A DNA stretch of 63,965 nt, filler included, from Hausera hauseri (taxonomy: Eukaryota): assembly GCA_046269625.1 (NCBI GenBank). It is 12 parts of 12 records of this genome, joined end to end, with 100 filler letters (N's around TTAATTAATTAA, not from the genome) between each part and the next. Parts side by side here need not be neighbours in the genome. Positions count along the whole stretch, not along the records: positions 42,902 to 50,447 come from JBJURY010007567.1; 11 more parts are not named here. The stretch is one strand, 5' to 3'. A program made the position numbers and the translations under genes. The notes under the pieces are model-generated. The model worked only from the letters and a program-made list of their open reading frames with translations, ran no database searches and had not been told where the DNA came from. Shown here in pieces: positions 3,633 through 63,500 of this stretch. The number at the start of each line of letters is the position of its first letter. Position 1 is the first letter of the stretch.

Positions 3633-3699
3633 GTAAATTTATCATTATAATGCTTACAAACAGACATACATAATCTAGCCCGTGAGTGAAACTTATTGT

Positions 3700-8791: not shown

Positions 8792-8793
8792 TT

Positions 8794-17112: not shown

Positions 17113-17185
17113 CGCCCGATAAGGGACTTGAACCCTTGACCCTCAGATTAAACGTCTGATGCTCTACCGACTGAGATAACCGAGC
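17113..17185 (-). tRNA. tRNA-Lys(UUU), degenerate copy
   Basis: Reverse complement of the 15157 gene with three substitutions, including U33->G in the anticodon loop and a D-stem change. Confidence 0.8.
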
Positions 17186-19008: not shown

Positions 19009-20150
19009 TTTATATTAGTTTCACTGGCGAAATTAGAATGTACAACGCTGTGTGTGTGTTACAGAACGTTTCGAAACTTTAAGTCTAAATTTTATTAGGT
19101 TCCCAAGCGCGTAGAACCTTGAAATTTTCTGGAGAGATGCATTTTTGTCCCTATTTTGATAATTCGTCGTTGAAATTTGAAAAATATTTTTTTAAGTATT
19201 TTTTAATATTTTTTTTTGTTTTTTCTTTTCGGAACTTTAAGTTTAAATTTAACCGTGTTCCGAAAAGCGTAGATGTTTGAAATTTTCAGGAGAGGTACTT
19301 CTTTGTCCCTATTTTTCGAATTCGTCGTTAAAATTTTTAAATTATTTATATAAGTACCTTTAAATAATTTTTTTTTGGATTTTTTTCTCTCGAGTCCTTC
19401 AAAACTTTAACATAAAATTTCAGCGACTTTACGAGGACGCACAGGTTTCAAATTTTCTGGAGATATAAATTTTTGTCCCTATTTTGATAAATCGTCGTTG
19501 AAATTTGAAAAATACTTTTTTAAGTATTTTTTTTTAATTTTTTCTGTTTTTTCTTTTAGGAACTTTATGTCAAAATTTTACCAATTTCCGTAAGGTGTAT
19601 AGCTTTGAAATTTTGAGGAGAGATAACTTTTTGTTCCTATTTTTCGTATTCGTCGTTAAAAGTTTTAAAATATTTATATAAGTATTTTTAAATATTTTTT
19701 TTCTATATTTTTTTTCCTTGAAGCCTTCGAAACTTTAACATAAAATTTCGCAGAATTCCCGACGGCGTACAACTTTCAAATTTTTATCAGATATCATGTT
19801 CTGTCCCTATTTTGATATTTCGTCGTTAAAAGTTAAAAAATATTTTTTTAAGTATTTTTTTTTTATTTTTTTCTGTATTTTCATTATAGAACTTTAAGTT
19901 GAAATTTAACCAATTTTCGAAATGCGTACAGCTTTGAAATTTTCATTACAGATGCTTATCGGTCTCTATTTCGATAATTCGTCATTAAAATTTTAAATTT
20001 CGGTACATTAGTATTTTTTATTTATTTTTAATTAAGAGTCTGTTTTCGACCTTCTGAATTAAATTGCGTAACCAATCAGCGTTGTCGTATTCCCTCCTCC
20101 CAAGCTCCACGTGACAGAGACGTATTTTACGTCACGACGTAATGTTCTAG
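19009..20150 (+). mobile_element. Non-autonomous Helitron/Helentron-like element with internal tandem array
   Basis: TTTATATTAG start, (TG)n microsatellite, six ~164-bp units, perfect hairpin TTACGTC-AC-GACGTAA (20127-20142), then CTAG (20147-20150). Confidence 0.6.
19073..20030. repeat. Tandem repeat, ~6 monomers with alternating 158/170-bp period
   Basis: AACTTT anchors at 19075, 19233, 19403, 19561, 19731, 19890; conserved CCTATTTT and TCGTCGTT cores. Confidence 0.92.
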
Positions 20151-23245: not shown

Positions 23246-23377
23246 NNNNNNNNNNNNNNNNNNNNNNNNNNNNNNNNNNNNNNNNNNNNTTAATTAATTA
23301 ANNNNNNNNNNNNNNNNNNNNNNNNNNNNNNNNNNNNNNNNNNNNTTCTAGCACGCCTGGAGAATTTTGATAAGACA

Positions 23378-24007
23378 TTGCAATTAGCTCAGGACATAGA
23401 AATGGTATTGGATAAATATACCAGAAAAAACAACAGAAGTGATGGAAATAATGATCAAAGTGATCTAAGCGATAGAAATCGGAATGATAGAAACGCTAGA
23501 CGATTTAACAGGAATTATTGGGATTGTAATAAGAACGGTAACTATGATCACAAAAGTAATCGCTATGGTAATCGGAATTTTGATAATAGCCGAAATAGTT
23601 CATCTAGTAAACTAAACTACAATTCGGATAGACGCCTAGATAGCTCTAGAAATTTTAACAATGGAAATCGACAGAATGACAGCCAAAGTTATGATAGTCG
23701 CCAATATGGGGACTCCAGACAAGCCCCGCAACATCAGAATTACAATAGGAATTTGAGTAGATCGAAATCTCCGGTTAATGAAGACGGTCGACAAAGGGTC
23801 GGCAGAAACGGCAACTTGATTTGTTATACATGCGGGCAAGAAGGACACATAGCGAGATCCTGTCCAAACCCACGAAGCGTTTCGTTTGTTGAGCCTAGCA
23901 AAACCAATGTAGTTAAAAATGAAAATCTAGAAGCAATTTACGGTGTTCGTAAAGTCACAGGTATGATCATTGCGATACAAGACTTACGACGTTTTTTAAA
24001 GATCTAA
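23378..24007 (+). pseudogene. gag C-terminus with CCHC zinc knuckle, copy B
   Basis: CX2CX4HX4C motif after an N/R/D-rich linker. Confidence 0.9.
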
Positions 24008-27000: not shown

Positions 27001-27437
27001 CAAAATAAGAAGCCATAAGGAAGGCCAGAGCGGAACAGTGGGTAGGTCGAATCATAGGAGTGCAAGACGCAGCAATGTATTTCGAATATCTGCAAACCGA
27101 CGAAGACAAGAGACAATACGATAAGAATCTAGCGCCAACCAGTGAGGTCGCACCAACTGTAATGAAACAGAAGCGTTCCATCGGTAGACCACGGAAAACG
27201 CAAGAAGAAATCGATTATAATGGAGACTTAATCAGAGAACTGAGGCAAATGTCCATATCAACCTTCAGCACCGATGACGAAGAAGTGAAGGAACTCATGG
27301 AAAAGTTGATACGGATAGTGAACCACCCTAGTCTCGGTGGCGATATACTGAGCGAAAAAGAAAAAGCTATATTTAACGCAGCCAAAACTATGAAAAGTTT
27401 TCGTTGTAAATAATCCAGAAGTACCCTAAATGATGAA

Positions 27438-28276
27438 ATGGTAATTGAAAAAATTATGGTAGAGAACACCGTAGAGGAGTTAAGGAAAGTGTTACTATAT
27501 TTGGCCGTTAAAACCAACCCGGTCCGAGATAACGAATTCAATAAGGCCATTAGCTTGGCGAGGAAGGCTGCCAGAAAACTACCACTAAAAGTGAATAGGC
27601 CTAAATTGTTTGAAAGAGAAGAAGAATGGCAAAATGGGTCCTTCCTTGGCAATAATAGAGTTGAAGACTTGTTACGGAACGTAACCAGAGATAATATAGG
27701 AAACGAGTCAAACTGGTTAATTAACTTCTTAATTATGATGATGTTAATAATACAGATGTGGGCAGTTGCAGTGTACGACTGTGACAAATTTAGACGCGGA
27801 CAAAAATACTCATTAATGGAATTAGAAATGTGCGAAGACGCGAGACCACATAAATTAGAAACAAAAGAGAAAAATTACATGCTATATCAACAATGCGAAC
27901 TAGTTACATTAGATGAAGTAGAATGTATGTTGCGACGATCTCGCAGCATTTTCCATTGTGGACTAGTACATGAACATTCACCCATAATCAAGCCAACCAC
28001 CCCACCAATCCCGATGAATTTAGAACGCAAGCATTGCAAGCAAGGTAGAGAGACGGGAAGAATAAAATGGGACGGCATAGAATTAGAAATTCAGCAAGGG
28101 CAAATAATCAGAGTGTATAAAGTGGCTGCTATGGTGCAGAATACGGCACTGGAAAAGGATTAGAGTCAAACATCGTAGTGGTAGACTTTTACGAAATCGA
28201 GATGCGCCTACAGAAGGTAATGTTTCATAGCGTTACTAAACTTTACACAGAAAACCATAAGTGCCACATTTCAGAT
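27438..28276 (+). pseudogene. End of X fused in frame to the chuvirus-like glycoprotein, copy B
   Basis: One ORF runs VIEKIMVENTVEELRKVL...NWLINFLIMMMLIIQMWAVAVYDCDKF...ECMLRRSRSIFHCG. Confidence 0.88.
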
Positions 28277-28459
28277 TGAAAGGCCTTGGGCAGACTCAGA
28301 AATTTCCGTGGAGTATATCCATTGGATAAAGTCCCCGACTATCTGCTCAATGGAGNNNNNNNNNNNNNNNNNNNNNNNNNNNNNNNNNNNNNNNNNNNNT
28401 TAATTAATTAANNNNNNNNNNNNNNNNNNNNNNNNNNNNNNNNNNNNNNNNNNNNTATT

Positions 28460-30560
28460 CTTCGATTAGCGTGATCCCACGTTCTTCGCTGTCGTTTACA
28501 CCTTTCAGCATTTTGACTTTCGCACACAACTTTTGATAGGTTGTTCAGCTTCCCATGCTCTGCATCCATTTAAACGAAACTCCTGGTCTCTATTCCTGTT
28601 GGGTTTAACAATTCGAATATACGATTAGTTCTCTTTGTTACGAATGTCCCTAAATCGTTGACGTCAGCATCACGAGCATGTCAGGCATCCACCCTATTCA
28701 TCGCCGATTGAGTCTTCGGAAGATGGAGGTTTGCCTCCATGGCTTTCTTCACATGTGACTCTGGAGAGAACAGTAAACACGGCATCATCAAGAGTTCAGT
28801 TTGGATACGTTTGAAGAAGTCGTAGCATCTGTGCATCATTCATAGGATCGTAAGAGGCCATTGGAGCCTCATGCCAGAATCAATCATACATAAGTGCAAC
28901 GAAGACAGCAAGTTCAGTCAGTTTTTTGCGCTCTCTGACAGTCAAAGTCAGTTGGCCTTTAAACAGTACAATCTTCATAGAGTAGATGGTCTTTGTCATC
29001 CACCTTGCATAGTACATCGCACCAGGTACATCCGCTTTGGCTGAGCCTCCACCAAAATAGACTAATCACAGTCGACGTAGGTCAAGATAATCATCTCTTC
29101 GCTATTGACAAGTTATGACATTTGTGTAGAAAGTCATCATTTCCTTCCCCTGGATTTCGGTGTCATAGTTGAAGAGTTTATCTTTTGCTGGCGCGAAATC
29201 CGTTTGTTGGATATCAGGCAATTTCGTCCGGAACTTCTTGAATAGGCTTACTTCAGGTCCTCCTTTTTCACCAAACAAATCCGTGAATATGCATCAAAGG
29301 ACGACTTTCATGTTGCGGTGGCAACAGCAAATATAGATAAGTTCATGACTAACGGCCTTTTCCATGAGAATACAAGCTCCTTCGTGAATACCAGTGTTGG
29401 ACGCTGTTGTATCAAAAACCATACCAATCACTGTATCGCGTAATTTCCACTCATCTAGAACTTCTAGGAAAGCAGCAGCTTGTTCACTAGCTGTTCCTTT
29501 TCCGATTTTTAGAACAACCAGCAGCTTCTCAGTTGCATAACCAGTCACGATCACAGCAACTCGGTTCACAGTTTTCTCAGCATCATCAATGTCAGGAAGC
29601 TGTTTGCCATTCAACTCTACAGAAAAACGGCCTTGATCTGCTACAGCCACCTCTTTGCTTACGGCCATCCTACATCTTATCGTGCTTCGAGACAATGCCA
29701 GGTCGTCAACAGGATGTCACCACAAACATAACTCCACGGTCAGACAAGTTGACCCTGTTCAAAGCATCAGGAACTTCTAGGTTTACTATTATATTCTTGG
29801 CTGACTTCTTGTACTTAGTCTTTCTGGCTGATCGTCATTCATCGAAAGATGTTGGAACTGGAACTGAAGTACATGTCCGTGTCACCATCGCCCATATCAT
29901 TACCTTCAGATAAAGTAAAAGCACTTCCTAGTCATTTTTTAAGTCATCATGTACTTTTAGCCATTGTGACCTTTCAGCCTTACAGTTGTCTTTGGCTTAC
30001 TCACGTGCTCTTTTCGTGGCCTCTTTTTGCAGCAGTTTGCGGTCCACTCCTGCCATGCTGCAGCTGGTAACGTCGATCCTTTGCATGATAAGGAATTGCT
30101 TATCCTCATCATTAGTCATTATCTCTGTCACGTTCTTAGTTGCAATATCAAATAATTTCTGGAGATCGTCGCTGAATGATTGTTTTTTAACCCTGCAGCT
30201 TTTCAATCACTGTTCTTCTTCAGTAGCTGATATTCATAATATAACTTAGAGTTTTTCTGCGGGGTCGATTTGCTGTATTGGGAGTATAGCTTTCTTCCAT
30301 ATCTCCAAAAGCTCAATGATGGTAAGGCGAATACTTTCTTTCACATTATGATGCTGTTTCTGATGATGATAGAAGACACATTTGTACCAATTCTTCATTA
30401 TTTTCCCAGACGTTTTGATTACAGTCGAGAATACATATGTTATTCATGGAATTCTTATGCAATGAACAGATACTTTTTATGAACTTCTTTTGCTGTACAG
30501 AGACCAAGTCAAGCACTTATGCAAGTTACGTACATTTTGTGGGACGTGTCTCAGTGCGTT
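28460..30560 (-). pseudogene. hAT-like DDE transposase (hATm/Cc8K15.2-like), decayed
   Basis: LQKLFDIA; VFDTTASNTGIHEGACILME...CCH; RDDYL; YARWMTKTIYSMKIVLF; VNDSEERGITLIEEY. Confidence 0.8.
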
Positions 30561-34628: not shown

Positions 34629-35290
34629 ATGAAGCTGCAGAATGAAGTCAGCTTCCAGATTGTAGGCCCCAGTAGAAGTGGCAAAACACACCTTGTGTGA
34701 AAACTGCTGAAGAACTATCGTGACATGTTCCATTCACCGCGGTACGATCACATATACTGGCATCACGGTGTTGGTGATAATGGTGAGTCCGGTCTGACAC
34801 ATTGGAATTTTGTAAACTGAATTCGATAACGATAATTGATGGGTTTGATATAAACTGGTCATAGAGATTATGCAACGGCGAAGATATTGTCACTGACTAT
34901 TTATTTCAGGAAGCCGCGAAATAATCGGACTTCAGCAAACTGTTCACGAAGATTGCACGACACCGTAGTGTGACGGTTATTTTCATTACGCAAAACATGT
35001 TCCATCAGGGCGTCTGGCATCGAACAAGAAATCTAAACGTACACTATTTGGTGTTGTTCAAAAATTCCCGTGATCAGACTATCATTGATTATGTTCCCCG
35101 ACAAGCATTTCCTTACAACCGAGCCTACTTGATAGATGCATATCATGATGCTACGAACTAACCACATGGATATCTGTTTATTGACTTTATACAACAGGGT
35201 ACCGATGGCATGTGTGTACGAACAGACATTTTCAATCAGAAGGGTATATGTGTCTATAAACAAACTCGAAAATCGACGACATTAGTGTGA
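34629..35290 (+). pseudogene. Polinton A32/FtsK-like packaging ATPase
   Basis: Walker A IVGPSRSGKT; LFTKIARHRSVTVIFITQNMF; LNVHYLVLFKNSRD; PHGYLFIDF. Confidence 0.93.
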
Positions 35291-35475
35291 TAAAATGAAG
35301 AATTTCCGAAAAACAGCTGTAAAGCGTAAACCTACCAAGCACGTGTCCGGCGACAAGAAACGTGCATCAAAACTAACCACCGCTACAGTCAATAACTAGA
35401 CGCAAATTACTGTCTCAGTGGCAACGCTAATAAACAACTACGTCTCATTAGCATCAATACGTCCATACAAAAAGC

Positions 35476-35810
35476 ATGCGATTCAAACGTAAGCAGCCGT
35501 ACTTTATTGCTTTGCTCAAGGCACCTACAAGACATAAGCGAAACATGCTGCGATCATTTCCACAGTTTGTAGTAGGCGATTTGATGGAAATTTTATACAA
35601 TATTGTTGTGGGTCACGTTGACATTGGTAGAGGAAAGCGAAATTTACTAAAGTATTGAAAACGACTTATTGGCCTTGTCAACGCCCGTAGTAAACGACTG
35701 AAACGGGAGGTCATGTACCAGCAAAATGGCAGATTCCTTGGTGCAATTCTACATATTGTCACGTCATTACTTGGTGCACTCATTGGTTCTACAGCCACAG
35801 CATAGTATAA
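35476..35810 (+). pseudogene. Polinton small basic ORF with amphipathic C-terminus (GasderminX/PW-like)
   Basis: LMEILYNIVVGHV...QQNGRFLGAILHIVTSLLGAL. Confidence 0.6.
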
Positions 35811-35956
35811 ACAATGACTGTAAGTATATGGTAATTTGGAGATATGGGTGCATGGTATTCATCTTTTTGCCACAGTTTACCAAATCTTTCATTTATGTTT
35901 CCTTCTAACTGTTGCAATGCAAACAAAACCGGCACCATCGACTACGACAAAACCGA

Positions 35957-36983
35957 TGGGCGACGTGTGTTTCGACATGTGTCGTCCCGTCGGCTATACC
36001 GGCATTGACAAACTGGCAAAGACTGTCAAACAGACTCGGTAACAGACCCGACGTTGGCTCGGGAAACAGTTAGAATACAGCCTAAACAAATAGATAAAAA
36101 GGCGGATTCCAACTCGTGCATACAGAGCTGTCGGTGTGAATAACATATGGCAGATGGATCTAATGGAAATGATTCCGTACGTCAGCATCAACGATGGGTA
36201 TCGTTACGTGCTTATATGTGTTAATGTGTTTAGTCGTTTTGCACGTGCAATTGCCGTGAAATCCACGCTGCAGAGGTACTGATACAACAGCAACAACGAG
36301 AGCATTTACAAACGGATTTGGGTAAGGAATTCTACAACGCCCATGTTGCAGCGGTCTTGAAACGGTTCGGCTACTTGGTGTTTTGAAACCACTTCTCGGT
36401 GTTTTCCAAATACAAGGCTGCACTCCTTAAACGATTTAATTGAACATTGCGCTATCGCCTAAACAAATTCTTTAAGGAGCAAGATAATAAACGCTGGGTA
36501 GATGTACTGCCGGATATTGCTTATGTGTACAATCATTCGACACACCGTGGAATCAACGGAATGCGCTCGGTTGACTCAGTCGGTAATTTGGATATGTGGC
36601 TTTATCAAAACCGAACAACACAACAACGACGATGACCCAATAAACGTCCCAAGTATAAAATCGGTGATAATGTACGTATTTTAAAGCTGAGTACAACACC
36701 ATTTATTGAGAATTTCAATCAGAACTGGAGCGATGAGGTTTTCCGAATTTCGGCAATAAACACAAAACGAACATGTGTTATGTACATTTTAAAAGATAAA
36801 AATGGTGACAAAATACGTGGCAAATTTTAAGAGCAGGAACTGCAAGTAATACCGGAAAAACCTGATGTGTATCGTATTCAGGAAATTGTACGTTAACACG
36901 GGAAGGGTTCGAATAAACGACATCTCGTCAAGTGGCACGGATACACTATACTGAGTTGAATATTTGCATCGCAGATTGAGTGA
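35957..36983 (+). pseudogene. Polinton rve integrase with chromodomain-like C-terminus
   Basis: PVGYTGIDKL; WQMDLMEM...NDGYRYVLICVNVFSRFA; YNHSTHRGI; NWSDEVFRI; YRIQEIV...LVKWHGY. Confidence 0.92.
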
Positions 36984-37400
36984 TGAGCATTTATTTGATA
37001 CTTGATAGTAACAGATTATTAGAACATGACAACAACAACATTACCGCTAAACAGGTTACCATAGCGTTGAACCAGCCGCTCAACTTACTCCAAGGATCCT
37101 GGGTGGTGGCTTTGGCTGAATTCACGTTTACATTTTTACCAATAACAATACGTGAGAACAGTCGAATATACTGTACTCTAGTAAGACAATCTCCTGCAAC
37201 TAGTCGTTTGCAGTTAGTTTGAGACTCTAATGGAACATTTTACGTTCGCAATTACAAGCGGCAATATTTTCCGGTTTATATCTTTTATTTAACAATCGAT
37301 TGGTGCTAAAACACAAACATCCGACTGAATTGCAATTTAAATCACTAGCCGACGCTCAGGCATGGGGTTTTCAATTATCAGCCAATGTGCGTTCGAAAGG
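36980..37400 (+). pseudogene. Polinton minor capsid (penton)-like
   Basis: IYLILDSN...IALNQPLNLLQGSWVVALAEF. Confidence 0.7.
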
Positions 37401-37499
37401 TTTACAGCTCGAAAGGTTTTACACAGTATAATTAGTGAAAAATTGAAGTTTTCCACTGCGTAAACCACCGATATAACAGTGAACTGGCGAAAGATTGAA

Positions 37500-38251
37500 T
37501 CATTCTTTTTCTCTCATACAAGAGTAATTGGATTTTAACATTATGGCATCGGGCAACGAATACCTGAATTTGAACGATACGCTATTATATGTAGAAGTCA
37601 TTGTTAAAAAGGACGCGGCAACGGTTCTCGCTGCAACAGACACTGTCACACCGACCAATTACCTTTTCCTCACACTTTTCCAGGAGGCTTCACTGACTCT
37701 AAACAGCGTCAAAATCGAAGGCAACACAAGTCTATACAGTATTAAAGCACTCATTGAAACGGCTCTGAATTACACTACTAACACCAAAACGACTCACTCG
37801 ATGAGAACTATCGGATACGATGCCACAGCGTCAAACCGTCAGGCGTGGGTGGCAGAATCAAAAGCACTTACCATGAGTGGACCGCTGTACTTTGACTTTT
37901 TTAATCAGCCGAAATATCTACTGCCCGGTGTTAAAGCCATGATTCGGCTCAAACGCGGCGACAGTGTCCTTTGTTTGAAAACCACCGTTGCAAATCTCAA
38001 ATCCATACTGAAAATTACCGAGGACGATTATACGTACGTTTAGTAAAGTTAGAACCATCTGTGCTCATGGGATATCGATTGGGCTTGGAAACGCAAAATG
38101 CCTGTAACCCGATACAACCCGCAGAACTTGCCTTTTACACCATACTTAAAGGTTTGACTACGTTTTGAAAAGATGCACTGTTTGGTGACATGCGATTGCC
38201 GAAATTTGTGCTCGTTACATTTCAAACGACTGTTCAACAAACGGGCAGTTA
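37500..38251 (+). pseudogene. Polinton major capsid protein (double jelly-roll, PY)
   Basis: DFNIMASGNEYLNLNDTLLYV...PTNYLFLTLF...YSIKALIETALNY...DFFNQPKYLLPGV...LYVRLVKL. Confidence 0.9.
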
Positions 38252-39177: not shown

Positions 39178-42100
39178 AGTCCGATTTCGAAATAAAAAAA
39201 ACTAAATTCCATATATAAATTATTGTATATGTCTAAGAGTAGTGGCCATTTTTCTTTCCGATCACTACGTAATGCAATCCAATCGTATTCTTGTAAAATA
39301 TTTGCTCCTCCATGAGTTGAACCGGTTACTCGAACATTTAGACTGGAATGAAATCTTGTAAGGTTGGAAATAATAATCGGCAATTCAACATTTATGGCCC
39401 ATACAAGTCCCCGTATGTTAGTTGAGAGGTGGCTAACAACTAACATGTGAGCTCGCAATTCCAATTCCATGTCATCTTGATAAATAAATCTTTCAAGCCA
39501 TCCAACGAACATATATCATCATCTATGTCTCTTGACGCTTTATTTATAGTTACCATGCATTCCTGAACATCTCCCCTAAACATTAAGAAATCAAAACTAT
39601 CTTTATGTTCTGACATTAATCCGTATGGATGTGGAGGTAATATCAATTCTCTTGATTTATATTTTCCTTTGTTCGACATTCTAAAATCGTCTGGATCATT
39701 AAATACTACAGTTCGCAGTTCATAACTCGTAAAGTAGTCCATTAAGCGTTCGTCTAAAGTTCTACAGTATTCGAGGTTATATTTTTCTTTCCAGGACTCA
39801 CAGAAAAAATTAACAGAATTATTATTGGCTAGTTGTTCGAAATGAATTGGCAGATATAAAAGCCGAGAAAATAACATGTACCCAGAGAATCCCATATGCA
39901 AAATATTGAAAGCTTCCATTGTTAAATTGTTGACAACTGCATCATCTTCACAAGCTTCTTGTAAAACGTCAATTGCTGCTTCTGATACTCCAGGGTCAGT
40001 GTCATGTATTTGCTTCAATAAAAAGCTTACTCCCCCATTAGCAAAATATGGTAATTTTGCCCTTAAAAGTACTCTGAGAAATTTTGTTGTATATTGACGA
40101 ATGCACACAATGGGTGAATTGACGGCAACTGTCAACAGATTTAGGTCTATAGATGGACGCGTATAATCAAGACACCCGAGTATCAAATTTGCATAAACAT
40201 CACTGGATCCATAATCGAGTAACAGTTTAAAAATATGTAAAAATTTATATTCTTCCAAAAGTGCTTTGCCGAATTCTGTTGAAGTCATTCGACCAAGAGG
40301 AGGAAACTTATACGAATTACATTTGTAATTAAATTCATATTCGCTAAATGATGAATCTTCAAACATCGCGTCAGTAGTTGCATATATTATAAGTTGTTTA
40401 TAATCATATGCTACTCCGTATTTCAGACATTCACGAAATGATCTATTCATAAATTTTAAAAACCGAACCAACTCTTCACTAATGGTCGAATTTTTGGTTG
40501 ATTGAACTAAACAATTAATTATATCGATAAGCACAAAATTGGCTTTTAAAGAAAAACTCCATGTCAGCTGCAGAGGTACAAAATACTGTTCCGCGTAACT
40601 TAAAGAGTCCATAATGGACTTGTCGGATTTTGGATTTTGAATAAAAAACTCCAACAGCCTTTTCAATATTCTGTTGATTACATCTCTAACGAAGTTTGCA
40701 GACATTGTAGAACTTTGAAGGGCTCTTGCAAAGATCATTAATAAATCCCAGTCCCATAAATTGTAAAATTGTTTAGAATGATATAAAGTGTCATCTAAAA
40801 CATGACTGAAACGTTCAGCGAGTTCCAGTAAAACATTGAACTTTTGACTTTTACTATTCACTGACGAACTTTTCTTCGATGCTAAACTTGTAGGGACGTA
40901 GCAACTTTCAAGAATATTATCTATGTTTGCCGGATGAATAAATGTCATAGAAACGGATAGTCCGTCATTTATAGTACTTATTGGCTGAATAATAGAATTC
41001 ATCAAAGGAGTGATATCAAAAAGCTCCTGTTCAAGTAAACTGTGGATTTGATGCATCCATAATATGGTTTTTTTCGATCTAGGATGAGTGAAAAGTGTAG
41101 CTGTATCAATTTTATTAAGAAGTGGATGATCTGAAGAAAGTAGAACCGAAGCTTTATAAGAAAGTATGACTAGAAGAAGACCTGCTCTGACAGACTCATT
41201 TTCATTTTGCACAGCAGTTGCAAGAGCTTCAAGAAGATTATTTTGAACAAATATGCCTATAACAATGACGTGGGAATTGTCAAGAATTTTGATTCGATTT
41301 GCGGATAAATAAGGTAAACAATCGTAACATTGTGTCACAAAAGATTCATCATCGAGTCGCCAAGACGGTATGTATTTGCCGTTTTTTTGATCTTCGATTG
41401 ACTTAGTACAAGTACGGAAATCCTCAAATTCTGGAGGGGGTCGAAAAACGTGGAATAACTGAAATAATAAAACTAAAATTCTCTTCCTAATATTAGTAGA
41501 GCCCATTTTCAAGAGACTAGTTAAAAACAAAATTGTCTGGCTGCTACGTCCATATAAATAGAGAAATCCTGGCCAAGAGTGAAGTATTTTCAATAAAACA
41601 AAAATAGAATGTGTTTCAACTTCCCCATGATCATCATTGAAAGCCCTCGAATCCTCTTTTGGAACTGACGAAAGATCATACAATATTGAAAATGGTGCTA
41701 AGGATCTATGGAAATATCCATCGGGTATGTGACTCCGAAATAACGGGTGGGAAACAAGCTTACGCAGCAACAAAAGGACTGCTTCGATTATGTTTAAATC
41801 AAAATTAATAATTAGACCTTCTTTGATGAAAATGGCTGTCTGAAATGCTTCTAGAATTTGACTCTGATGTATTAAGTTGGGAATAAAATTGGTAAGATGA
41901 AATAATATCATCAAGGTAGGTCGTAATGCTGGGTCAATCGGTGTAATATTGCATTTTGAGCATGTTACACAACTACCAACCATACAATTTACAATATAAA
42001 TTAGAATGAGTTTTGGCAGAATCAAAACTAATCTAAACAGCAATCTCATGGCCGGAATTCGCTCAACGTCCCTTTTATTATAATACTGTGGAGAAACGGC

Positions 42101-42801
42101 ATCGTGATACGATAGATCCAAGGATTGTCTTAGGAAAAATTCAACTATCATTTTCACACAAATTTCCGAATGACGGCTATTTAAAACATGATATCGTAAA
42201 CATCGCAATGTTGCAACTCTCGGTGATTTATATTGACTCCATAAACAATATTTAATTAATGAGTAAATGGATATCATAAAATGGATATCATAGACCAATA
42301 CATTCAAATAAGAAATACATGTTTCCAAATCATATTCAAAGTCATCATTGCAAAATTGTGATAAAATTTTGGCATAACTAATTACAGCATCATTAGACTT
42401 TTAATTTTTGCTAAATCAAAACTATTTTCCTTATCACTACGTCCTACTTTTATTACTACATTGATAAATGAATCTGATTTATCACATATTGTGAACATGA
42501 CAAAAGTGTAACGATTTGGGTTGTTGAAAGGTAAATTTACATTAATAGGCAGACAGTGATGTGGGTAATAGTCGCAGTGTGTTCCAAAAACAAAAGTCTG
42601 ACTAACCAATGTCGTTCGATTAAAAATCACGGATTTGTGTCCCGAAATGCATGAAAGCCAATCGTATGATTGCTGACACCAATTATAATGATCTGCGGCC
42701 GAAGAGTTCTTAAAATTATTAGCAAAAAGTATAATAATGTCAGGTTTAACCTGCATTTTTGGGTGCATGGAAAACGACTTTGATATTTCCAGAGGCACCA
42801 A
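39174..42801 (-). pseudogene. RICTOR: RICTOR (mTORC2 subunit), divergent; a 962-aa ORF with frameshifted flanking pieces
   Basis: VATLRCLRY; ERIPAMRL; ILHSWPGFL; IRQYTTKFLRVLLR; LLKQIHD...AIDVLQEAC; LPPHPYG; in the next frame ELRAHMLVVSHLST...SLNVR...GANILQEYDW...WPLL. Frame changes at ~42390 and ~39480. Confidence 0.9.
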
Positions 42802-43024
42802 NNNNNNNNNNNNNNNNNNNNNNNNNNNNNNNNNNNNNNNNNNNNTTAATTAATTAANNNNNNNNNNNNNNNNNNNNNNNNNNNNNNNNNNNNNNNNNNN
42901 NGAAAAAATTAGATAATTGTAAAGTTTGGAGTATGAAGAGTATAATTATGAATATTACAAATTAATGAAGATTTATAAAAATTGAAATAATAAATGTAAA
43001 AAATGAAATAAAAAATTAAAAGTA

Positions 43025-43130
43025 CCATTCTAAAAATGGAACTAAACGACATGGTGTCGAATATTCCAATTTTAAAAATTCAAAAATTCCATTTCTAAAA
43101 ATGGAAACAAACGGTATGGTGTCGAACGAC
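43025..43130 (+). repeat. Two-copy ~64-bp tandem repeat
   Basis: CCATT(T)CTAAAAATGGAA..AAACG..ATGGTGTCGAA at 43025 and 43089. Confidence 0.75.
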
Positions 43131-44764
43131 CCAGTATAAATACCTTTGCAAAACTCTCTTAAAAACTCTCTCGAACCTATTAAATTTAACTTTACGGACT
43201 ACAGACTAGGTTAGACCCTACGTTAGTTTATAAAATTATTGCTATTAGGAAATTGACCATGGCTGAACAACATGATCCTTACGACCACAATTCTACAGAA
43301 GGAGTAACAGGTATGCGTCCTTTCAGATTATTTGCGATTGTATTTTAATTTTTATATTTTTGTATAAATTTGTATTTATCAATAAATATTTTGAAAATGA
43401 AATTGAATTGGAATGGGGTAGCGATGGATAAGGTGTTGTGAACAATCGGAAGATCGGACGGTGATACTAAGAAAGCGATGATTAGAGGACTGAAAGTTGT
43501 TTGGAAAAATTCAATGAATCCGAAAGTATGACGAAACCGATGGAAGATATAAATATATGATTGAAAGTTGTTTAGAAATCAGACGACTAGAAATTATGAT
43601 GATGGTTAAGTAATACTATAAATAAATGTGTTGACGTTTATTATGTTTCAATTGTAGTATGAATATTAATAATAAATTTAACATAAAAACAGTCAACTTT
43701 AAGCTGATTTATTTTTATGAATTTCAGGGGTTGATTGTATCCAGGACAAGTCGATAAGACTTGGTAATTGGAGGGTGAAAACTTTTGATAATACTTGTCA
43801 CTGTGGTGTCAGTTCGTCATGTAATTCGGGTTGAAATGGTCGTGTTGATGATCGTGATTGCAATTTAAATTTAAGAATCGACTGTATACGACCAGCGGAA
43901 TTGGATAATGTTAACATATGCTACAGATGCGACATGCAGAGGTCATTAGAGAGCATGCGTCTATTTATATGTATCATAACAATCAATAGCAAATAACGGA
44001 ACTGACCGCGTCTACATTTAATTATAGCGTATAAGAAATTGATATGTTAGTAATCGACATGATCATGTACTCGTTTTCATTTTCAATATGAATTTTGACT
44101 GTATGTATGAATTTTGAAGTTACTCATATGTGGAAGTTACTGGTATGTGTTTTGGGAATTCTGAGAGTGATTCTGGTTTGCATGTGGAATTTGATGAATA
44201 TACTCATCTATGGACCTGAGTTAACTTAGGATTTTCGTGTCAGAAAATAATCGTTTGAACTTCCACTTTTTACATATTCCACATCTATATGGGTCAGCAT
44301 GTTAAATGCATCAACTTAATAATTGCTTGATTGTGAAACACGCATTTCAACATTTTTGTGTCAGGATTAGCGGGAGTTTTATGGGGATTCTGCCGTTCCA
44401 TTATGTCGAAATTTGCAGATCTTATGGACAATGATGCTAGTGAGAGTTGAAGGATAATGCTTTGTAACGAGATGTGCCTCTGTGGTATTAATTCAATGTC
44501 CCGATATTGTGCTGTTTACCGAAGTGACCATCGAATTAAGTTTAGATCAAATTGTGTGCAGTTTCGAACCTTGTATGACTGATTTAAGTTCGTGTATAAA
44601 TATAATATCATAGCTTGAAGAGCTATCAACTCGGATATATAGGTGTAATATAATAGTTTAAATGAGTGAATATAAATATATCGTCAAAGTACGCATGTGT
44701 TACGTATTGATAACATTCGTTTTATAATTAGAAGTGAATTTAAACTTGAGATTAATATAAATAA

Positions 44765-45000
44765 ATTTTGGTTAGATAATTTTCTTTTATTGCTTATTCA
44801 TCAAATCAAATTTGGAATTAATATAATTAAATTTTGAGTGAAAAGATTTCCTTTTATTGATTATTCATTAATTAAATACGAGATCGGTGCAATTAGACTT
44901 TTGGACGAAGCGATTTCCTTTTATTGATTAGATTTGAAATCAATATAATTATTTTTGGACAGAACGATTTCCTTATATTAATTGTTCATTAATATCACAT
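44765..45000 (+). repeat. Degenerate ~55-66-bp tandem repeat, four copies
   Basis: Recurrent TTT(C)CTTTTATTG.TTA core. Confidence 0.7.
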
Positions 45001-45017
45001 TTGTATTAATTACGCAA

Positions 45018-45030
45018 TGGTGACCGCAAT
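45018..45030 (+). promoter_or_regulatory. Possible PBS of a separate plus-strand LTR element
   Basis: ...TACGCA A TGGTGACCGC; downstream gag-like EYLHDFEEMVDPW and integrase-tail-like PFKVIKYINP remnants. Confidence 0.35.
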
Positions 45031-45468
45031 CTTTTATCTTGTATTAAATGCCCCGTTTAATTATGCGAAACCCGTCGGTAGAAGATGTCGCGGATAACAT
45101 ATACAGTATTGGGAAATTTCGAATATTTGCATGATTTTGAAGAAATGGTCGATCCTTGGGAGGAACAGGAGAGATGAATCAACTGGTGAAGAATGTGGAG
45201 CAAGTGGAGCAATCATGATCATCGGAAGGAAAAATGCATTTCTTGCAACGAATAAAGGATCTAAAGGAGACCCATGCGCCGACGATATGAAATTGTTCTA
45301 AGAAGGAACATTAGTCTACCCTCAACTCACGAAATCCTTCAGATATTGGAGACATCCGAGAATAACCTTTTCAGATATTGAAGGCAACAAGATTATTGGT
45401 AGACGTGAACTCCTACGGATTTATATGTTAGGTACCATTTAAGGTTATCAAATATATTAACCCCTGTA

Positions 45469-46158
45469 TCACCAACACCAATGTCTCAGTTCTTTTTGGT
45501 TCTGAGGTTCCATACAGTCAGAAATTTTGTTCAGCAATGATTTATCTGGTTTCGATCCTCCTTCGCCAACTATATGACCAAGGTAGGATACGGCATTTTG
45601 AGCCCATTTACATTTCTTTGGGTTTAGCTTTAATCCAGCTTGTTCTAGTCTCATTAGAGTGTCCTCAGTATCCTTTATATGCTCTTTTTCGTCTTTTGAT
45701 GCAGTCATTACATCGTCTATGTACGCAAATGCATTTTCAAGTCCCATTAGCAACTTATTCATCATCCTGGTAAATATGGCTGGTCCAGTGGTAATTCCAA
45801 ACGGCATAACGTTGAATTCGTATATGCCATCATGAGTTTTAAACGCAGTCTTATAACGATCTTCATCTTCAATTTCTACCTGCCAATATCCGGATTGTAA
45901 GTCCAGAGTAGTGAACCATTTTGCTCCAGAGAGCCTATCTAGAGCTTCTTTCACAGATGGTAAGGGAAAAGAATCTTTCATTATGACAGTATTTAATGCT
46001 CTGTAATAGATACAAAATCGATGTTTCGTGGTTTCTTTCTTTCTGACCATAAGAATAGGTAAGTACCATTATCTAATACTAGGTCGAATTATATCGGCCT
46101 TTAACATACGTTTTACTTCTTTAGTTATTTACAGTCTTAGATAATGCAGTGGCGGATA
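45469..46158 (-). pseudogene. Ty3/gypsy reverse transcriptase (truncated before RNase H)
   Basis: EVKRMLKADIIRPS; FCIYYRALN; LDLQSGYWQV; KTAF; VMPFG; AYIDDV; LKLNPKKC; YLGH. Same frame as the protease ORF. Confidence 0.95.
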
Positions 46159-47376
46159 CTATTTTGGCAATTTCTGTTCCTCGAGATCAATTTCATAGTT
46201 AGAACCAGGCTTTTTCTTAAGAAGTATAGTTAATTTCAATGCCTTTGCGCGACCAATATTTTCTTTGTCTTTTGCAATAATTAATTTATATCGACATAAT
46301 AATTCGTAAAACTGGCAATAAGCTTCTGGCGAAAACTTCGTATCGACGTGTGGTGGAAATTCTGCGTATTTATACGGTTTCTCTTCGACCGTTATCGCTG
46401 ATACCTTGTAGGTTTGTCCTAGAGTAGTGTTAGCATATAACTTTACTGGAGTTTGAGCATTATTCACTATCCTCACAGGTATTCGACCGGATGCTACTCG
46501 GGTTAATATATTGCTTAATATTATATTCGGGTTTAGCGTTTCTTTCGGCTCGAAATATACTGGTATATCGTCGTCTTGACAAATTTGTGCAAATATTAAC
46601 AATTCCGTTCTAGGCGGAATGTTCTTGTCAACCGGAATCCATACTTCTCCGGTTTCTCTTTCTTTATTAACTTTAGTCCCTTTTATCGGTCCGAGCTCGA
46701 TTAACTTCGAGGTATTTAGATCTATCGCGACGTTTGTTAGACGTCTTAATACATCACATCCGATTACTACGTCGTCTGTTAAATGTTCCATTATAGAGAA
46801 TTCATGTTGGAACGTCTGTCCCATTATTTTAAGACTAGATTTCCATTTGAATTTTGGTCTTGATTCTTGTCCGAAAGTTCCTATACGTCCGGGATCGGTT
46901 GCAAGTGGCGGTCTTAATTGACTTCGCAGTGTTTTCGGTATCGATCCGTCTTTTATAAATGATCTCTGTGATCCGGTATCTACTAGTGCGTAGACTTCCC
47001 AATCGTCAATACTAATTTTTGCGAAAGGTCTACCTTCCTTTATCTTAGGTTGTTTAGTGACGGATATCTTGTAACCATTTATATTAATTTCTGGTGCTTT
47101 ATTTTCGGCTACCTGCCGTAGTTCCTCAATAGGATACAATCCATTATTCACACCGTTTTCGTTGTCTCGGTCCGGTGTATTGCTTAGCGGTTCTCGGTTG
47201 TCTTGATTACGGAAGGATTGCATTCGTTGATTATCCCAATTTAATGAGTTGGTTTCTACGCTCCGTGAAATCCTTGGAGAGTATATTATCTTGCGATCAT
47301 CTGCTGGCCAGCGACATAATTCGGATTTTTCTCTGGTTCGGTACATTTTTCGTAGCATGCCGTATTGTTTTGTCAC
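46159..47376 (-). CDS. Aspartic protease plus beta-rich PR-RT linker
   Basis: ALVDTGSQRSF; DVVIGCDVL; IPPRTE...IPVRIVN...VKLYANTTLG. Confidence 0.92.
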   Translation of the reverse strand: MTKQYGMLRKMYRTREKSELCRWPADDRKIIYSPRISRSVETNSLNWDNQRMQSFRNQDNREPLSNTPDRDNENGVNNGLYPIEELRQVAENKAPEININGYKISVTKQPKIKEGRPFAKISIDDWEVYALVDTGSQRSFIKDGSIPKTLRSQLRPPLATDPGRIGTFGQESRPKFKWKSSLKIMGQTFQHEFSIMEHLTDDVVIGCDVLRRLTNVAIDLNTSKLIELGPIKGTKVNKERETGEVWIPVDKNIPPRTELLIFAQICQDDDIPVYFEPKETLNPNIILSNILTRVASGRIPVRIVNNAQTPVKLYANTTLGQTYKVSAITVEEKPYKYAEFPPHVDTKFSPEAYCQFYELLCRYKLIIAKDKENIGRAKALKLTILLKKKPGSNYEIDLEEQKLPK

Positions 47377-49516
47377 TTCATAGGGATCTTCATAACTGAA
47401 AGGCTTCCGATATATTTCTGAACTATAGGGTTAAGAGATCTCTTATCACTGTCTTCGTATTGCGGCGCCGAAGGGGGCAACATTGGTAAAGGCGGCCTAA
47501 GCGCCTTATGATTGCTTGTCTTGGAGACCGCGTCTCCTCCCTTAGGCTCATCATCATCCGAATGGTTTCTTCGGACTTTTGTATTTCTTTGTCTTATAAA
47601 AAATGTAGATTTTCTCTTTCGTTTTCGATTGTAGTAACTGACATGTCTCTCCACGTCGCTTTTTCATTTGTTTTCTTTGTAAGCTTTCAGAAATTTTCCA
47701 AACGGCGTTATAATTGACGTTAAGATTTTACACGAAAATCCGGTTAGAGTAAATATTTCATATCCATTTATGATAGATTGTATTATAGTCTTTACGAGTT
47801 GTACCATAAAGTAGATGGCTAAAAATCCTGATGCAGCTTGTCCGAAAATTAAAAATTTTCCCCAAATCTTATATAATATTTCTGTGGTGACTCTTTGATA
47901 ATGGTTAACACCAAGTAGGGACTCACATTTTGCTTGATAGCGAGTATCGTCCATCACAGTCGACATGGCTCTATTTAGCTCATGCGTGCGCTGTCGAGGA
48001 AAACTGTCTAAAAGCTTCAATTTCCTTTGGTCTGTAAATCCCTTTACTCGTGGTGTCGGCGAATTTATCATCTGTTATACCTTTTAGTAAGTTTGTTCCC
48101 GTTAATTTGCCAGGTGTAGCTATTATTCCTCCATTTGGCAGACTTACCCAATCTGTCTCGCTTCTTTTAAACATAGGTTTGCCTAAACCTGCTTTGCAAT
48201 CTTTGTGTCGCGTTTTCTAGAAGGACTCTAGTGAGTGGCATAGCCAATCGGGGTACATTTTGATATATGACTGGCAATTCTTGTATACAACGTTTTTCTT
48301 CTACGTTTAAAGATACGTCTCGTTTTTCGCATTCGTAGGTCAACAGGACTTCTCCGGTGACTCTTCCGAAAATACCTTCCTTCATCGGAATTACAGGTGA
48401 TGCTAGTTCTGGGTTCGCGTAAATTAAGGCCAATTTGGTTCTCATGATCTCCATATCCAATTTACAATCGTTTGCAATTATTTTGTAATATAGCTCTGCT
48501 AACCCAATTTGTCCTTTATAATAGAAGAAGTCGTCCCTATTCTTTAAATAATCTTCTATTCTTACATCTTGTGTTTCCAAATTGAAGGTAGTTATTGCGG
48601 CCTCTGCCACAAAGAATGCCTCGTAATTGATGGCATACATTACTACGTTGCACCGAGAAAGCATTTGTTTTTTTATGAATTTCAATCCGTGATCCTCGGA
48701 TATCAGTATCGTGGGTGTGGAATGCTCAGCGACGTTCTTTCTTGGTCTGGCGTTATTGTCAGTTGTCTCTACATACCTTTTTCCTGTGGTTTCATTGAAA
48801 TTTATTTCCTTGATTTTAATAAAGTTACAATCGTTCATAAGTGGTGGAGCCCAAATGACTATTGAGTTTCTGAAAGTGCAGGCACCATCTTGGTTATGGC
48901 ACTTTTGGTTTTCGGTACGCGTTTTCGTAATACTATGGTACATCATCTTTTGGTTCCTCATTTCTGTTTCGTAGAAATCGACCACTATTATTCCCGATTC
49001 TCTTCCTTTTCCGGTATCATATTCACCTCCTTTACAGTATCCGGTGTGCATATCCAGTTTTCCGATTGCTACCTTATATACTCGATTTATTTTTCCTGGT
49101 TGGGCCTCTAACTCCATCCCATCCCATCTTAATCTTCCAGTTTCTTTAGCTTGTTTACACTGTTGTCTATCTAAATCTATGGGTATTAGCAGTGTCGTCG
49201 GTTTTACTATCGACGATTGTCCGTGTATGTTTCCGCAGTGGAAAACACTTCGCGATCGTCGCAACATGCACTCTATTCCGTCTATTGCAATCAGTTCACG
49301 TTGCTGGTATAAAAAATACTTTTTCTCAATGGTTACTAACTTGTGAGGTCTAGCGTCTTCGCATAATTCCAAATCCATCAAGGAATATCTTTGTCCGACC
49401 TTAAACTTATCGCAGTCGTATACGGTGATTGCACCGAGCTGTCTTATTAACATCATAAGTGTTATTAGTTTAATCATCCAGATTGATTCACTGTCTCGCA
49501 TTGAGTTAGTTGGCAT
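47373..49516 (-). pseudogene. Full-length chuvirus-like class III fusion glycoprotein (~700 aa; two frameshifts, one stop)
   Basis: Signal peptide; ITVYDC..SLMDLELC; ECMLRRSRSVFHCG; GYCKGGEY; LYYKIIANDC; GIFGRVTGEVLLTYEC; CIQELPVIY; PLTRVL; TM region IWGKFLIFGQAASGFLAIYFMVQLVKTIIQSIINGYEIF..TGFS.KIL. Confidence 0.85.
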
Positions 49517-50547
49517 TAAATTTCTTACAACATCTTCGATTCCGGTGGTTGGCCTGTTTCCATCTTTGTCATCAAATAACTTGGATCAATTTATCTCTCT
49601 AGGTATCTTCCTAGCAGCTTTTCGGATAAATCCAATAGTTCTATTGACTTCATTTTCCTTTCGCGAATTCGTTTTGATTGCCAAGTACAATATTACTTTC
49701 TTTATTTCTTCCTTAGTATTCTCTACCATAATTTTCTCGATTAGAACTTAGTCTGATAAGTTGCTCTTATTCATTTTCAACAGAAATGTTCTCATAATTC
49801 TCGCAGCATTATATATTGCTTTTTTTTTCGTTTATCATCTTGTCTCTCGGTCCTGAATAGTTTACTATTTTCATAGTGTATCTCAGCAGATCGCTTAACT
49901 CTTCGTTCTCGGAGTTAATAGCGGGCATGGATAATTGCCTTAGTTCTCGTGTCAGGGCTGCACTTTGGTCAATATCGTTACTTATCTTTTTCTCGACCTT
50001 CCAACTAGTCGTTTCTGTTTCGGCGCAGTTGGTGTTGCTTCGCTTATTGGTACTAGATTCTTATCGTATTGTTCCTTATCTTTCTCACTCTGGAGGTAGT
50101 CAAAATACATGACAGGGTCTCTGACTCCCATAATGCGTCCTACGCAATGTTCATCTCTTACTTTTCTCGCAGCCTCATCTTTTGTCTGTTCGTCGGTAAT
50201 TATGGCCACTATTTGATTTGTTTCTTCTGAAATAATTCCAACATCTGTTAGTAGTTCGGGTTCGTCCAGTATTCTACCTCGAAAATATAAACGGTAATTT
50301 ACTTCATCTTTTTCACCGTTTCGCATTATTCATTGCTTTACTGCTCCAGCCGATGTCGTTGTACATTCATTTTCTTATTCTTCCATTTCTTCAGCCGATA
50401 TTTTTACATTAACCGTCGTTTTGGGTTTAGCTTTTAAGAATTCAGCGNNNNNNNNNNNNNNNNNNNNNNNNNNNNNNNNNNNNNNNNNNNNTTAATTAAT
50501 TAANNNNNNNNNNNNNNNNNNNNNNNNNNNNNNNNNNNNNNNNNNNN

Positions 50548-54901: not shown

Positions 54902-55019
54902 AGTAGGGGGAAAATACCGCTTCTGGCTCAAACCCCCCCGGGGGGGGGGTTGGATCGATAAATCGATTTGCACATGTGCCGATCGATAGAGCACCCGGAA
55001 CACTATCGATCCATAAAGT
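54902..55019 (+). repeat. Interspersed element terminus, copy 1
   Basis: AGTAGGGGGAAAAT...ATCGATAAATCGATTTGCACATGT...CTATCGATCCATAAA, shared with 58802-58912. Confidence 0.8.
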
Positions 55020-58801: not shown

Positions 58802-59180
58802 AGTAGGGGGAAAATGGCGGTTCTGGCCCACCCCACAGAGGGGGGTAATCGATAAATCGATTTTGCACATGTTACAATAGATAGTGCACACTGTGCCCTA
58901 TCGATCCATAAAATGCCTAGCAACGCTGCCGCTGGGCACCGTTGCTAAGGACACTTTTGCACTTTTCACTTATCGATCGCTGCATAGTGCAGTATTGATC
59001 GAATCGATCTGGACAAAGTACTAATAGATAGAGCACATCAAAGCGCATCGATTGGTGCACAGTGCCAGTGTGCAGCACATGTGCAAGTGTGCAAGAATCA
59101 AAAATATTGAATTTTCAAGTTTTCAAAAATCGATCTTTGGGTCTCGAGACCGGGTGCAATCGCAAGTGCACTTGATGTTG
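58802..59180 (+). repeat. Interspersed element terminus, copy 2, rich in ATCGAT/GTGCAC palindromes
   Basis: Homologous to 54902-55019 and starting at the same AGTAG. Confidence 0.8.
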
Positions 59181-61399: not shown

Positions 61400-63500
61400 A
61401 ATGTAGAATTCAACACGATATGAATTATAATAAAAGTATGAAGAGGAAAAACCTTCACCTAAAAGCTACAATTTGGCATGCGAGTAGGCGATTGCTATAT
61501 GGGATCGAGCCAGGACTCAACAAATAGACTCATGCATCAGAAAACTTAAGAAACTACACGAAGAGTACTTATCCCTAAAGAAACACAGAACTAGACAATG
61601 GGAAAGTGATAGACAGAATGAAGAAATCTTTAAAAGTGAACTCAAACAGATGTTCGATATTTCCGCAAAAGACGTTTTGACTAAACGCAAAAAGCAAGAT
61701 CCAGAATTTCTATAAAAGCAAAGACAGAGCGTGTTTTCTTGCAATATGAGTGCAGTTGACCTTTAAATTAATGCTAAAGAATACAGAAGGAGACAACGTG
61801 AGGAAAAGAAAGTCCTAACAAAAGTATGATATGAAGAAAGGCAGACGAAAGAAATTTCCAGTCAAACAGGAATTTTCCTCAGCACCATATATTGAGTCTG
61901 AAAGGGAAAATGAATATCAATCTGTAAAATCAGTGCCCATTGAGGTTGCTAGTAATGATGCAGTAACAGAAACTCCTAAGAATATTTTCACATCCCCCGT
62001 GGTTGTTGGTGCTCTACACCGAGTCGATCTTTCTGAATGGAGTGCGGTATTTGTTGTAGGAGCTAGTGTTCAGGTTCTCGGTCATGAGATTCATGATACA
62101 ACACTATCTAGAAGTTCAATCATATGATGTCAAATGCAAGTTAGAAGAGATGTTGTAACAGCAGAAGAAACAAAAATTTCCTTGAAAGGTCCTCTTCTTT
62201 TACATTAGGATGAAGAATTGTTACTGGATACAGATGGATCAAAGGTAGACCGATGTTCTACCACTGTTACTGGAAACGGAGATAAAACATTACTGGGTAT
62301 ACCAAAGATAGGGAAAGGAACAGGTGATGCACAAGCAAATGCTCTTGTTGATGCTATCATGAAATGGAACCTTAGTTCAAACATTGTCTTGTCTTTTATA
62401 CAACAGTAAGCAATACAAGACTTCGCAAAGGAGCTTGTGTCCGACTTGAATTTTTTTGTGGAAACTGCATTAGATTGGATCGCGTGTCACCATCATATAA
62501 CGGAAATTATACTGTCTGACGTCTTCTGTTGTCTGCTTGGCTCAACTGAAAGCCCACAACAGAATTTTTCAAGCGATTTCAGAAGCAGTGACCATTAATA
62601 AATCACTCTAAGTGTACATCTGCAAGTGCCGATCTCTTTAGTAATCCTGTGCTAAACAACCTACATCGAGAAATGCTCGATTATTTGACTCATACACTTG
62701 GAACACAACAATCACGTGATGATTATCAGTTAATATTGCGCTTGTTTCTCTTGTTCCTTGGTGCGCAATATCCTGGTAAAGTAATTAGAGCACCGGGGCC
62801 TACACATCACGCACTGAAGTTATTCCTATTGAGAACACAGTTTCAGATGACAGCACGGCAACTCAGCAACATATCATACTTTGCTTTGTTTTTCAGTCTT
62901 GTGTATGTCAGATACTGGAATGAAGTGCCAAGTGAAATTAGGGTTTCATACATTGACGTTGAAATATCGTCTGTTCTCACCATATATCCGAATAAACCAG
63001 TTGCAGACAAGGCACACGCAGACACTTCCAGACATCTGTGGTTTCTATCCTAGCACTTTGTTGCACTTGCATTTTTTTCTTACATAATCCAACCAGAAAC
63101 AAAACTGCTAATGGTAAAAAACTTACAGCGTCCATAATTTACAGGTATTTTACATTCAAATGTACAGATGAAGCAGAACCTGTCATCTTTGAGGATCTTG
63201 TAAGACAGAGAACACAGTTACATTTAATCTTTTGATTGAAGAATGATCAACAAAAGCAAAATCATTCTTGGAGAAACACCCCGGTTTTCAAGGAACTTTG
63301 GAAGCCGGCACATAAATTGACTGTTGTTAACGATGCCACTATACATGGGATATGCCTAATTGAAAAAATACATTAATACTTTAACACAAGATGAAGAACA
63401 GAAGCAATTTGTTCTTCGACTGGTGGCAAGTCACGGAAAGAAATTTCCTTCTGCATCAAAGGCAGCTGTTATGTCACAGACCATTGACTATTTGTCATGT
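61400..63500 (+). pseudogene. hAT-like DDE transposase (hATm/Cc8K15.2-like), decayed
   Basis: LKQMFDIS; LLGIPKIGKGTGDAQA; FYTTVSNT..RKGACVRLE; IACHHHITEIIL; RDDYQL; RAPGPTHHA; RHLWFLS; VVNDA..GICLIEKY. Confidence 0.85.

Follow-up and report, generated by a model that had tools for sequence, protein, structure and literature searches.

Does the glycoprotein gene at positions 47373–49516 of this Hausera hauseri DNA record a new capture of a viral fusion protein by a retrotransposon, or is it part of a retroelement of a kind already described? The stretch that we analyzed, hereafter the window, is 63,965 nucleotides long and consists of 12 separate pieces of 4–8 kb joined by N-TTAATTAATTAA-N linkers; the piece at 42902–50447 is the sole context of the gene, the pieces being unrelated to one another. 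An earlier note, made from the sequence alone, had read the gene as a chuvirus-type class III fusogen on a Ty3/gypsy backbone, captured independently from a negative-strand RNA virus lineage. We find that the fusogen and the backbone were correctly recognized and that the independent capture is not borne out. In our reading, which we hold at a probability of about 0.85, a decayed Ty3/gypsy retroelement (gag, accessory domains, glycoprotein, protease, reverse transcriptase), likely Burro-like, left its broken envelope gene here, and in working form it would have made one long polyprotein.

The glycoprotein gene (G) is broken, lies on the minus strand and runs through three frames, with three breaks in total. 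Its parts and motifs, the latter all matching as written in the earlier note, are as follows.

49427–49477, minus: hydrophobic signal-like segment directly before the YDC start of G (hydropathy scan)
48206–49420, minus: G ectodomain, first frame, with fusion, PH-like and central helix domains (PF24664, AlphaFold2, Foldseek, VIA-align)
48001–48177, minus: G ectodomain, second frame, between the two frame switches (tblastn with residues 581–639 of relative P0001, 41% identity)
47373–48002, minus: C-terminal part of G, third frame, with membrane-proximal region, transmembrane segment and basic tail (PF24664, E 3.2e-17)
49420, minus: YDC motif
49042, minus: G.C.G.EY motif
48493, minus: LY..I....C motif
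48289, minus: C..ELPV.Y motif
48238, minus: P.TR.L motif
47864, minus: W..F..FG..ASG..AI motif
47798, minus: LVK.II..IINGY motif

These account for seven of the nine motifs listed in that note; FHCG and GRV.GEV, the remaining two, occur as well, though their spacing deviates slightly. A Pfam scan matched PF24664 (Monjiviricetes fusion) to 48167–49516 at E 3.6e-33 and to 47664–48074 at E 3.2e-17, and a hydropathy scan placed the transmembrane segment at about 47864–47760. Frameshifts had been proposed near 48170 and 48000. Two switches do exist, near 48,200 and near 48,000, but 48167–48169 is merely the stop that closes the first frame, and an in-frame stop in the tail (47664–47666), ahead of the final stop at 47373–47375, had gone unlisted. 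Using phmmer, we found 445 proteins matching G at E<=0.001 among 1.84 billion representatives, and all 13 cysteines of the 449-aa G piece are kept in 97–100% of the 107–118 aligned relatives covering each position. The Pfam E-values, the relatives and the kept cysteines confirm a real gene, far beyond chance. A word-indexed protein search with G returned no match, and no relatives were found in IMG/VR.

The AlphaFold2 model of the first-frame ectodomain (pLDDT 90.8) matches chuvirus G and herpes gB by Foldseek and VIA-align; a model built from a single sequence (pLDDT 33) was set aside. Its best viral structural matches are the chuvirus G proteins of Tacheng tick virus 4 and Wenling crustacean virus 14 (E 4.5e-27), TM to chuvirus G reaches 0.72, and the top 13 VIA-align rows are gB, thogotovirus GP, rhabdovirus G and GP64. 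The G profile additionally matches gB at E 2e-5; phmmer with G alone found no PDB match. The monomer model contains fusion-domain hairpins, a PH-like domain and a long central helix, and we predict a class III (gB/chuvirus-like) fold for G, in agreement with the earlier note, which had proposed this structural comparison. It had also set G apart from baculovirus F, and this held: the matches are to class III proteins, no relationship to baculovirus F appeared, and RxK/RR, sought as the furin site of an F-type errantivirus envelope with a class I fold, is absent from the 449-aa piece. Sortilin/BNR propellers, raised by ESM Atlas at scores all below 0.9, were ruled out by the AlphaFold2 model and its class III matches. 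Sequence identity is 15–21% to the chuvirus-like models and 9–12% to herpesvirus gB, and G here sits in a retroelement whereas those proteins belong to RNA or DNA viruses.

The retroelement is recognizable from what follows G on the same strand.

46738–47037, minus: retroviral-type aspartyl protease (PR), DTG motif near 46980 (Pfam RVP, E 2.1e-6)
46450–46752, minus: linker between PR and reverse transcriptase, also found in relatives (phmmer to three relatives, E 4.5e-4 to 0.09)
45478–46160, minus: Ty3/gypsy reverse transcriptase (RT), in-frame stops at its start (RVT_1, E 1.5e-37)

Because a retropepsin and an RT adjoin G directly downstream, G precedes pol in 42902–50447. About 58 nt at the end of G are shared with the protease frame, and the different frames of G and PR in this broken copy may reflect decay or a native frameshift. 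The linker has no Pfam match and is possibly the dUTPase-like segment described for Burro. The best PDB matches of the RT are Ty3 RT (E 2.5e-39), and its LDLxSGYWQ, MPFG and YIDD motifs are common to relatives with gypsy-type RNase H and integrase families. With these matches and a retropepsin before the RT, the assignment to Ty3/gypsy instead of BEL/Pao stands; no Pao-type Pfam family was reported in the window ORFs or the scanned relatives. The RT is cut off at about 45478, where depth in run X1 drops from 22,448 to 326, and RNase H, integrase and an LTR were not found after it in the piece, the copy ending inside the RT; relatives P0003, P0004, P0009 and P0016 carry both RNase H and integrase. 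With three breaks in G and a pol that ends inside RT, this copy is dead.

The sequence upstream of G in this piece, together with three further matches in other pieces, allowed the rest of the element to be reconstructed.

49517–49828, minus: helical domain, sharing the frame of G and occupying the place of the relatives' Bcl-2-like domain, with in-frame stops (hhalign)
50180–50434, minus: ubiquitin-like domain of the accessory region, with in-frame stops (profile against PDB, Pfam)
8963–14525, plus: decayed sister copy in piece 8250–14525, extending from gag through a coiled-coil region and the ubiquitin-like and helical domains into the first part of G
23346–28276, plus: second decayed sister copy in piece 23346–28355, running from the gag C-terminus, with its CCHC knuckle, through the coiled-coil region and the ubiquitin-like and helical domains into the first part of G
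7586–7941, minus: lone fragment of a G of this family, ahead of a gypsy element unrelated to it (tblastn, E 3.9e-28)

The first sister copy, in a piece for whose continuity the window is the only source, has gag at 8963–10468 and G from 13887 to the piece end; the second gives Pfam matches to zf-CCHC (E 7.6e-8) and PF24664 (E 2.2e-9). The gag match to retrotrans_gag (PF03732) is weak, at E 0.007, and about 3.9 kb of coding sequence separates gag from G. The sister copies are 65–66% identical in nucleotides to the other window copies. Joined, the three diverged copies give the order gag, coiled coil, ubiquitin-like domain, helical domain, G, PR, RT, which is pieced together from copies about 65% alike, no single piece spanning it. 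In each of them, G shares its frame with the domain upstream of it. The signal-like segment before G is internal, because the reading frame continues upstream of it; in a sister copy, 27414–28163 is one open frame across this point. What defines the element, and what the earlier note had missed, is that G is placed between gag and pol and preceded by a ubiquitin-like domain and a domain at the Bcl-2 position.

A profile of the three window copies alone has ubiquitin folds as 28 of its 29 PDB matches (best E 0.005), and with three relatives, picked by eye, it reaches E 1e-5; the Pfam ubiquitin/UBX match is weak. Aligned with the relatives' domain by hhalign, the window ubiquitin-like domain scores 28.0 versus 17.1 in shuffles, with a probability of 63%. 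For the helical domain, hhalign to the relatives' Bcl-2-like region gives a score of 19.3 versus a maximum of 15.6 in 60 shuffles at a weak probability of 4%, the BH2 GGW motif is absent, and no Bcl-2 match was found in PDB. In four relatives, the G signal is immediately preceded by a Bcl-2-like domain (Pfam in 4/4, best E 2e-5; Bcl-xL in PDB, E 8e-4), a result that is partly circular, the four having been chosen by their GGW motif. By sequence comparison, then, the window domain is a candidate Bcl-2 homolog of unconfirmed identity. MATH, BIR and ankyrin domains were not detected in the decayed window copies by Pfam scan; ankyrin occurs in relative P0151. The coiled-coil region found no relative in the word-indexed protein search or in ESM Atlas (scores all below 0.9). 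Neither profile A3, built from the window copies and four whole relatives, nor a phmmer run with P0012 matched Bcl-2 or ubiquitin in PDB; the gag of P0012 matches the Arc2 capsid at E 0.007.

Between copies, pN is 0.20–0.26 and pS 0.73–0.96, in G and the accessory region alike; both have therefore been held as protein. In run X1, 6,846 contig pieces match the element, mostly 85–99% alike, and summed depth over the element is 566–22,448 versus 9–66 in all but one of the seven bins spanning 43406–45169; run X1 may be the source sample, and this depth is not independent support. The element is a large, old family of high copy number.

The window holds further features in its own right. At 1–8149 (minus) is a gypsy element with PR, RT, RNase H and integrase at 892–3638, preceded by an intron-free broken TPR gene (5998–7076) and by the G fragment at 7586–7941, which suggests that a fragment of env RNA from one gypsy family was acquired by another. 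The TPR gene presumably resembles TTC26/IFT56. RICTOR, at 39443–42400 (minus), is a single open frame of 986 codons with three Pfam domains, and the word-indexed protein search returned no relatives of it. Fragments at 34925–38040 (plus) resemble, by eye, a Polinton/Maverick packaging ATPase and capsid; like the two related, decayed transposase-like frames found in different pieces (28760–29716, minus; 61488–63050, plus), they lack Pfam support. tRNA matches (15157–15229, plus; 17113–17185, minus) lie around remnants of non-LTR retrotransposons (zf-RVT). Tandem and inverted repeats occupy 19015–20029, 21176–23213 and 44765–44999 (units close to 164 nt long, a 300-nt stretch duplicated at 95%, short repeats of 54–67 nt), and two pieces share short similar ends (54902–55017 and 58802–58912), possibly the termini of one mobile family.

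To place G, we turned to its relatives. The 17 best matches (E<1e-30) are 24–33% identical to it, and 14 were scanned, the other three being fragments of 426–492 aa. Protease follows G in the same protein in 11 of the 14 (one weakly, E 0.002), RT also follows in five, and a Pfam gag knuckle or capsid domain precedes G in three. Some relatives are more elaborate still: two or more aspartyl-protease-like domains follow G in P0003, P0005, P0006, P0013, P0017 and P0151, the last with seven protease-like stretches alongside ankyrin and C2H2 domains, and in P0003, P0004, P0009 and P0151 the region after integrase, which has no Pfam match, is flanked by signal-like and transmembrane segments, possibly a second membrane protein of the same polyprotein. 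A FastTree phylogeny of the 123 rows long enough to align, from 152 matches, puts the window G in a 20-row clade with the polyprotein relatives (support 100). NCBI lists one member of the polyprotein clade under a bacterial MAG, as a hypothetical protein; we take it to be animal DNA in a bin. A Y/F-x-x-YQ motif occurs in 12 of the 20 clade rows versus 0 of the other 103, and identity to G is 22–32% within the clade, 16–22% outside it and about 20% to the two named chuvirus G proteins. A 38-row subset tree separates a 16-row polyprotein clade (support 95) from a 14-row chuvirus-side clade (support 98) that holds the G proteins of Hardyhead chuvirus and OKIAV151, the only two named chuviruses among its mostly unnamed rows. 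A tree constrained to place the window G on the chuvirus side is worse by 37 log units (p-AU 0.033), which is moderate evidence, the groups having been named after the first tree was seen and most rows being unnamed. Both trees are unrooted and silent on the direction of transfer between virus and retroelement.

These trees bear most directly on the proposal of the earlier note that a gypsy lineage took up a chuvirus glycoprotein independently and fairly recently, in parallel with Anakin. In its favor, chuvirus G proteins lead the viral structural matches, Pfam assigns G to Monjiviricetes fusion, and the gypsy backbone differs from that of Anakin. Yet the tree comparison called for in that note, run with two named chuvirus G proteins, grouped the window G with gypsy polyproteins; identity to those two is low, and G is not nested among chuvirus G, as a Jingchuvirales glycoprotein EVE would be, the two falling in separate clades at p-AU 0.033. 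All of the closest relatives of the window G are gypsy polyproteins, so that a capture, whenever it took place, must be older than their divergence and is the one already reported; chuvirus/gB-like G on gypsy elements has been published. We consider a recent capture improbable.

Still harder to credit is that a solo viral G inserted into an ordinary gypsy element, or that two elements came to be nested by chance. The window is a set of short pieces, the isolated fragment at 7586–7941 does precede an unrelated gypsy element, and fragmentary G-gypsy neighborhoods are common in arthropods according to the available part of a survey (PMC10084718). Against this, a shared set of upstream domains precedes G in three diverged copies, G and PR form one protein in 11 of 14 relatives, and the RT beside G is closest to the RT of those relatives (43–51% identity versus 30% to the other gypsy RT in the window). 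A separate, non-Burro GAG-ENV-POL lineage with a similar accessory set, perhaps from a non-triclad host, would fit the long end branch of the window G (1.1–1.3, with at most about 32% identity to any match), the coiled-coil region without a relative and the missing BH2 motif, and GAG-ENV-POL elements are not one clade in pol in what is available of Chary & Hayashi (PMC13524379). Nevertheless, the Burro order is kept from the ubiquitin-like domain and the helical domain in the Bcl-2 place, through the signal segment and G, to PR, the linker and RT, and hhalign ties the ubiquitin-like domain to that of the relatives; we think such a lineage very unlikely. The locus is likely a decayed, ordinary Burro-like GAG-ENV-POL gypsy element, with no fresh capture shown.

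In such an element, the relatives point to a single polyprotein, G and PR standing in different frames in the window copy. Gag and the accessory domains would be made in the cytosol, and the internal hydrophobic segment would then send the G ectodomain into the ER, leaving the preceding domain, Bcl-2-like in the relatives, anchored in the membrane. The transmembrane segment of G would return the chain to the cytosol, so that the polyprotein would be threaded twice through the ER membrane and the G tail would at first hold protease, RT and integrase, which the element's own protease could then free. Tethering of this kind might couple envelope and enzymes in budding particles, which G, presumably as a trimer (the model is a monomer), would fuse with neighboring cells. 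Two relatives have a second hydrophobic stretch after the transmembrane segment, which could alter this topology. As a speculation to which we attach a low probability, the G of gag-env-pol polyproteins may be an old lineage beside chuvirus G, with retroelements as the reservoir that supplied chuviruses and related negative-strand viruses with their fusion protein, and with an env signal that doubles as the membrane anchor for a Bcl-2-fold domain upstream. The polyprotein set could help root the history of class III fusogens.

What the locus adds is one divergent, decayed, high-copy family of Burro-like gag-env-pol elements, and its reading is corrected: the unusual point is a polyprotein layout with host-like ubiquitin and apoptosis modules that is already in print. 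Some 20 unnamed metagenome polyproteins, a few of them with multiple protease domains or, after integrase, possibly a second membrane protein, indicate a group wider than the few described elements. In a search of openly accessible texts, we found no paper placing a flatworm retroelement G against Jingchuvirales. The available part of a 2023 arthropod survey reports no clear gypsy capture of G (PMC10084718), which may explain the surprise in the earlier note. Troyka (PMC12440569, in the part available) was considered and dropped, as nothing links it to the window element, and PMC13238120 mentions Burro only in passing.

Among LTR elements with G of the same Pfam family, Anakin of mosquitoes (Dezordi et al. 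2020, PMC7642597, as far as available) differs in its BEL/Pao backbone, and the window G does not nest among the named chuvirus G proteins. Nematode non-canonical ERVs (Sacco et al. 2022, cited in PMC13524379) are likened to the element by description, having env before pol in a metavirus. In its accessible text, Chary & Hayashi (eLife 2026, PMC13524379) describe gB-type env on gypsy elements across animals, argue for an ancient origin, and report 114 arthropod gypsy elements with Chuviridae-like G and a GAG-ENV-POL order in Platyhelminthes, Bryozoa and Nematoda among HSV/gB-type "errantiviruses". Our element shares with theirs a gypsy pol, a gB-like class III env before pol and many copies; their set comprises intact elements, whereas the window copy is decayed. 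The available main text makes no mention of Bcl or ubiquitin, and the ectodomain table, as available, has no exact match to the window G motifs; in six Schmidtea elements of the supplement, YQE(S/T/V)D(F/L) and the cysteine pattern resemble, by eye, the clade YQ motif and G.

The closest likeness is to Burro/GYPSM1, giant gypsy elements of planarians (Arkhipova & Yushenova 2019, PMC6431247, in the part available to us; Grohme et al. 2018 via that review). The review gives their order as gag, Smc, Ubi/SUMO-like, BCL2, env, PR, dUTPase-like and RT, with env in frame between gag and pol and matching mononegaviral fusion glycoproteins, and describes decayed copies with stops and frameshifts in Dugesia japonica; it thereby rules out our initial candidate view that the ubiquitin-like and Bcl-2-like domains were undescribed. 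Unlike Burro as described there, the window copies are broken or truncated, span only about 3.9 kb from gag to G, show no detected MATH, BIR or ankyrin domain, and leave the Bcl-2 identity unconfirmed. The likeness, drawn from the published description with trees that hold no Burro or Schmidtea sequences, extends through a gag with a weak retrotrans_gag match and a CCHC knuckle, a coiled-coil region, a ubiquitin-like domain before env, an env between gag and pol, and then PR, linker and RT.
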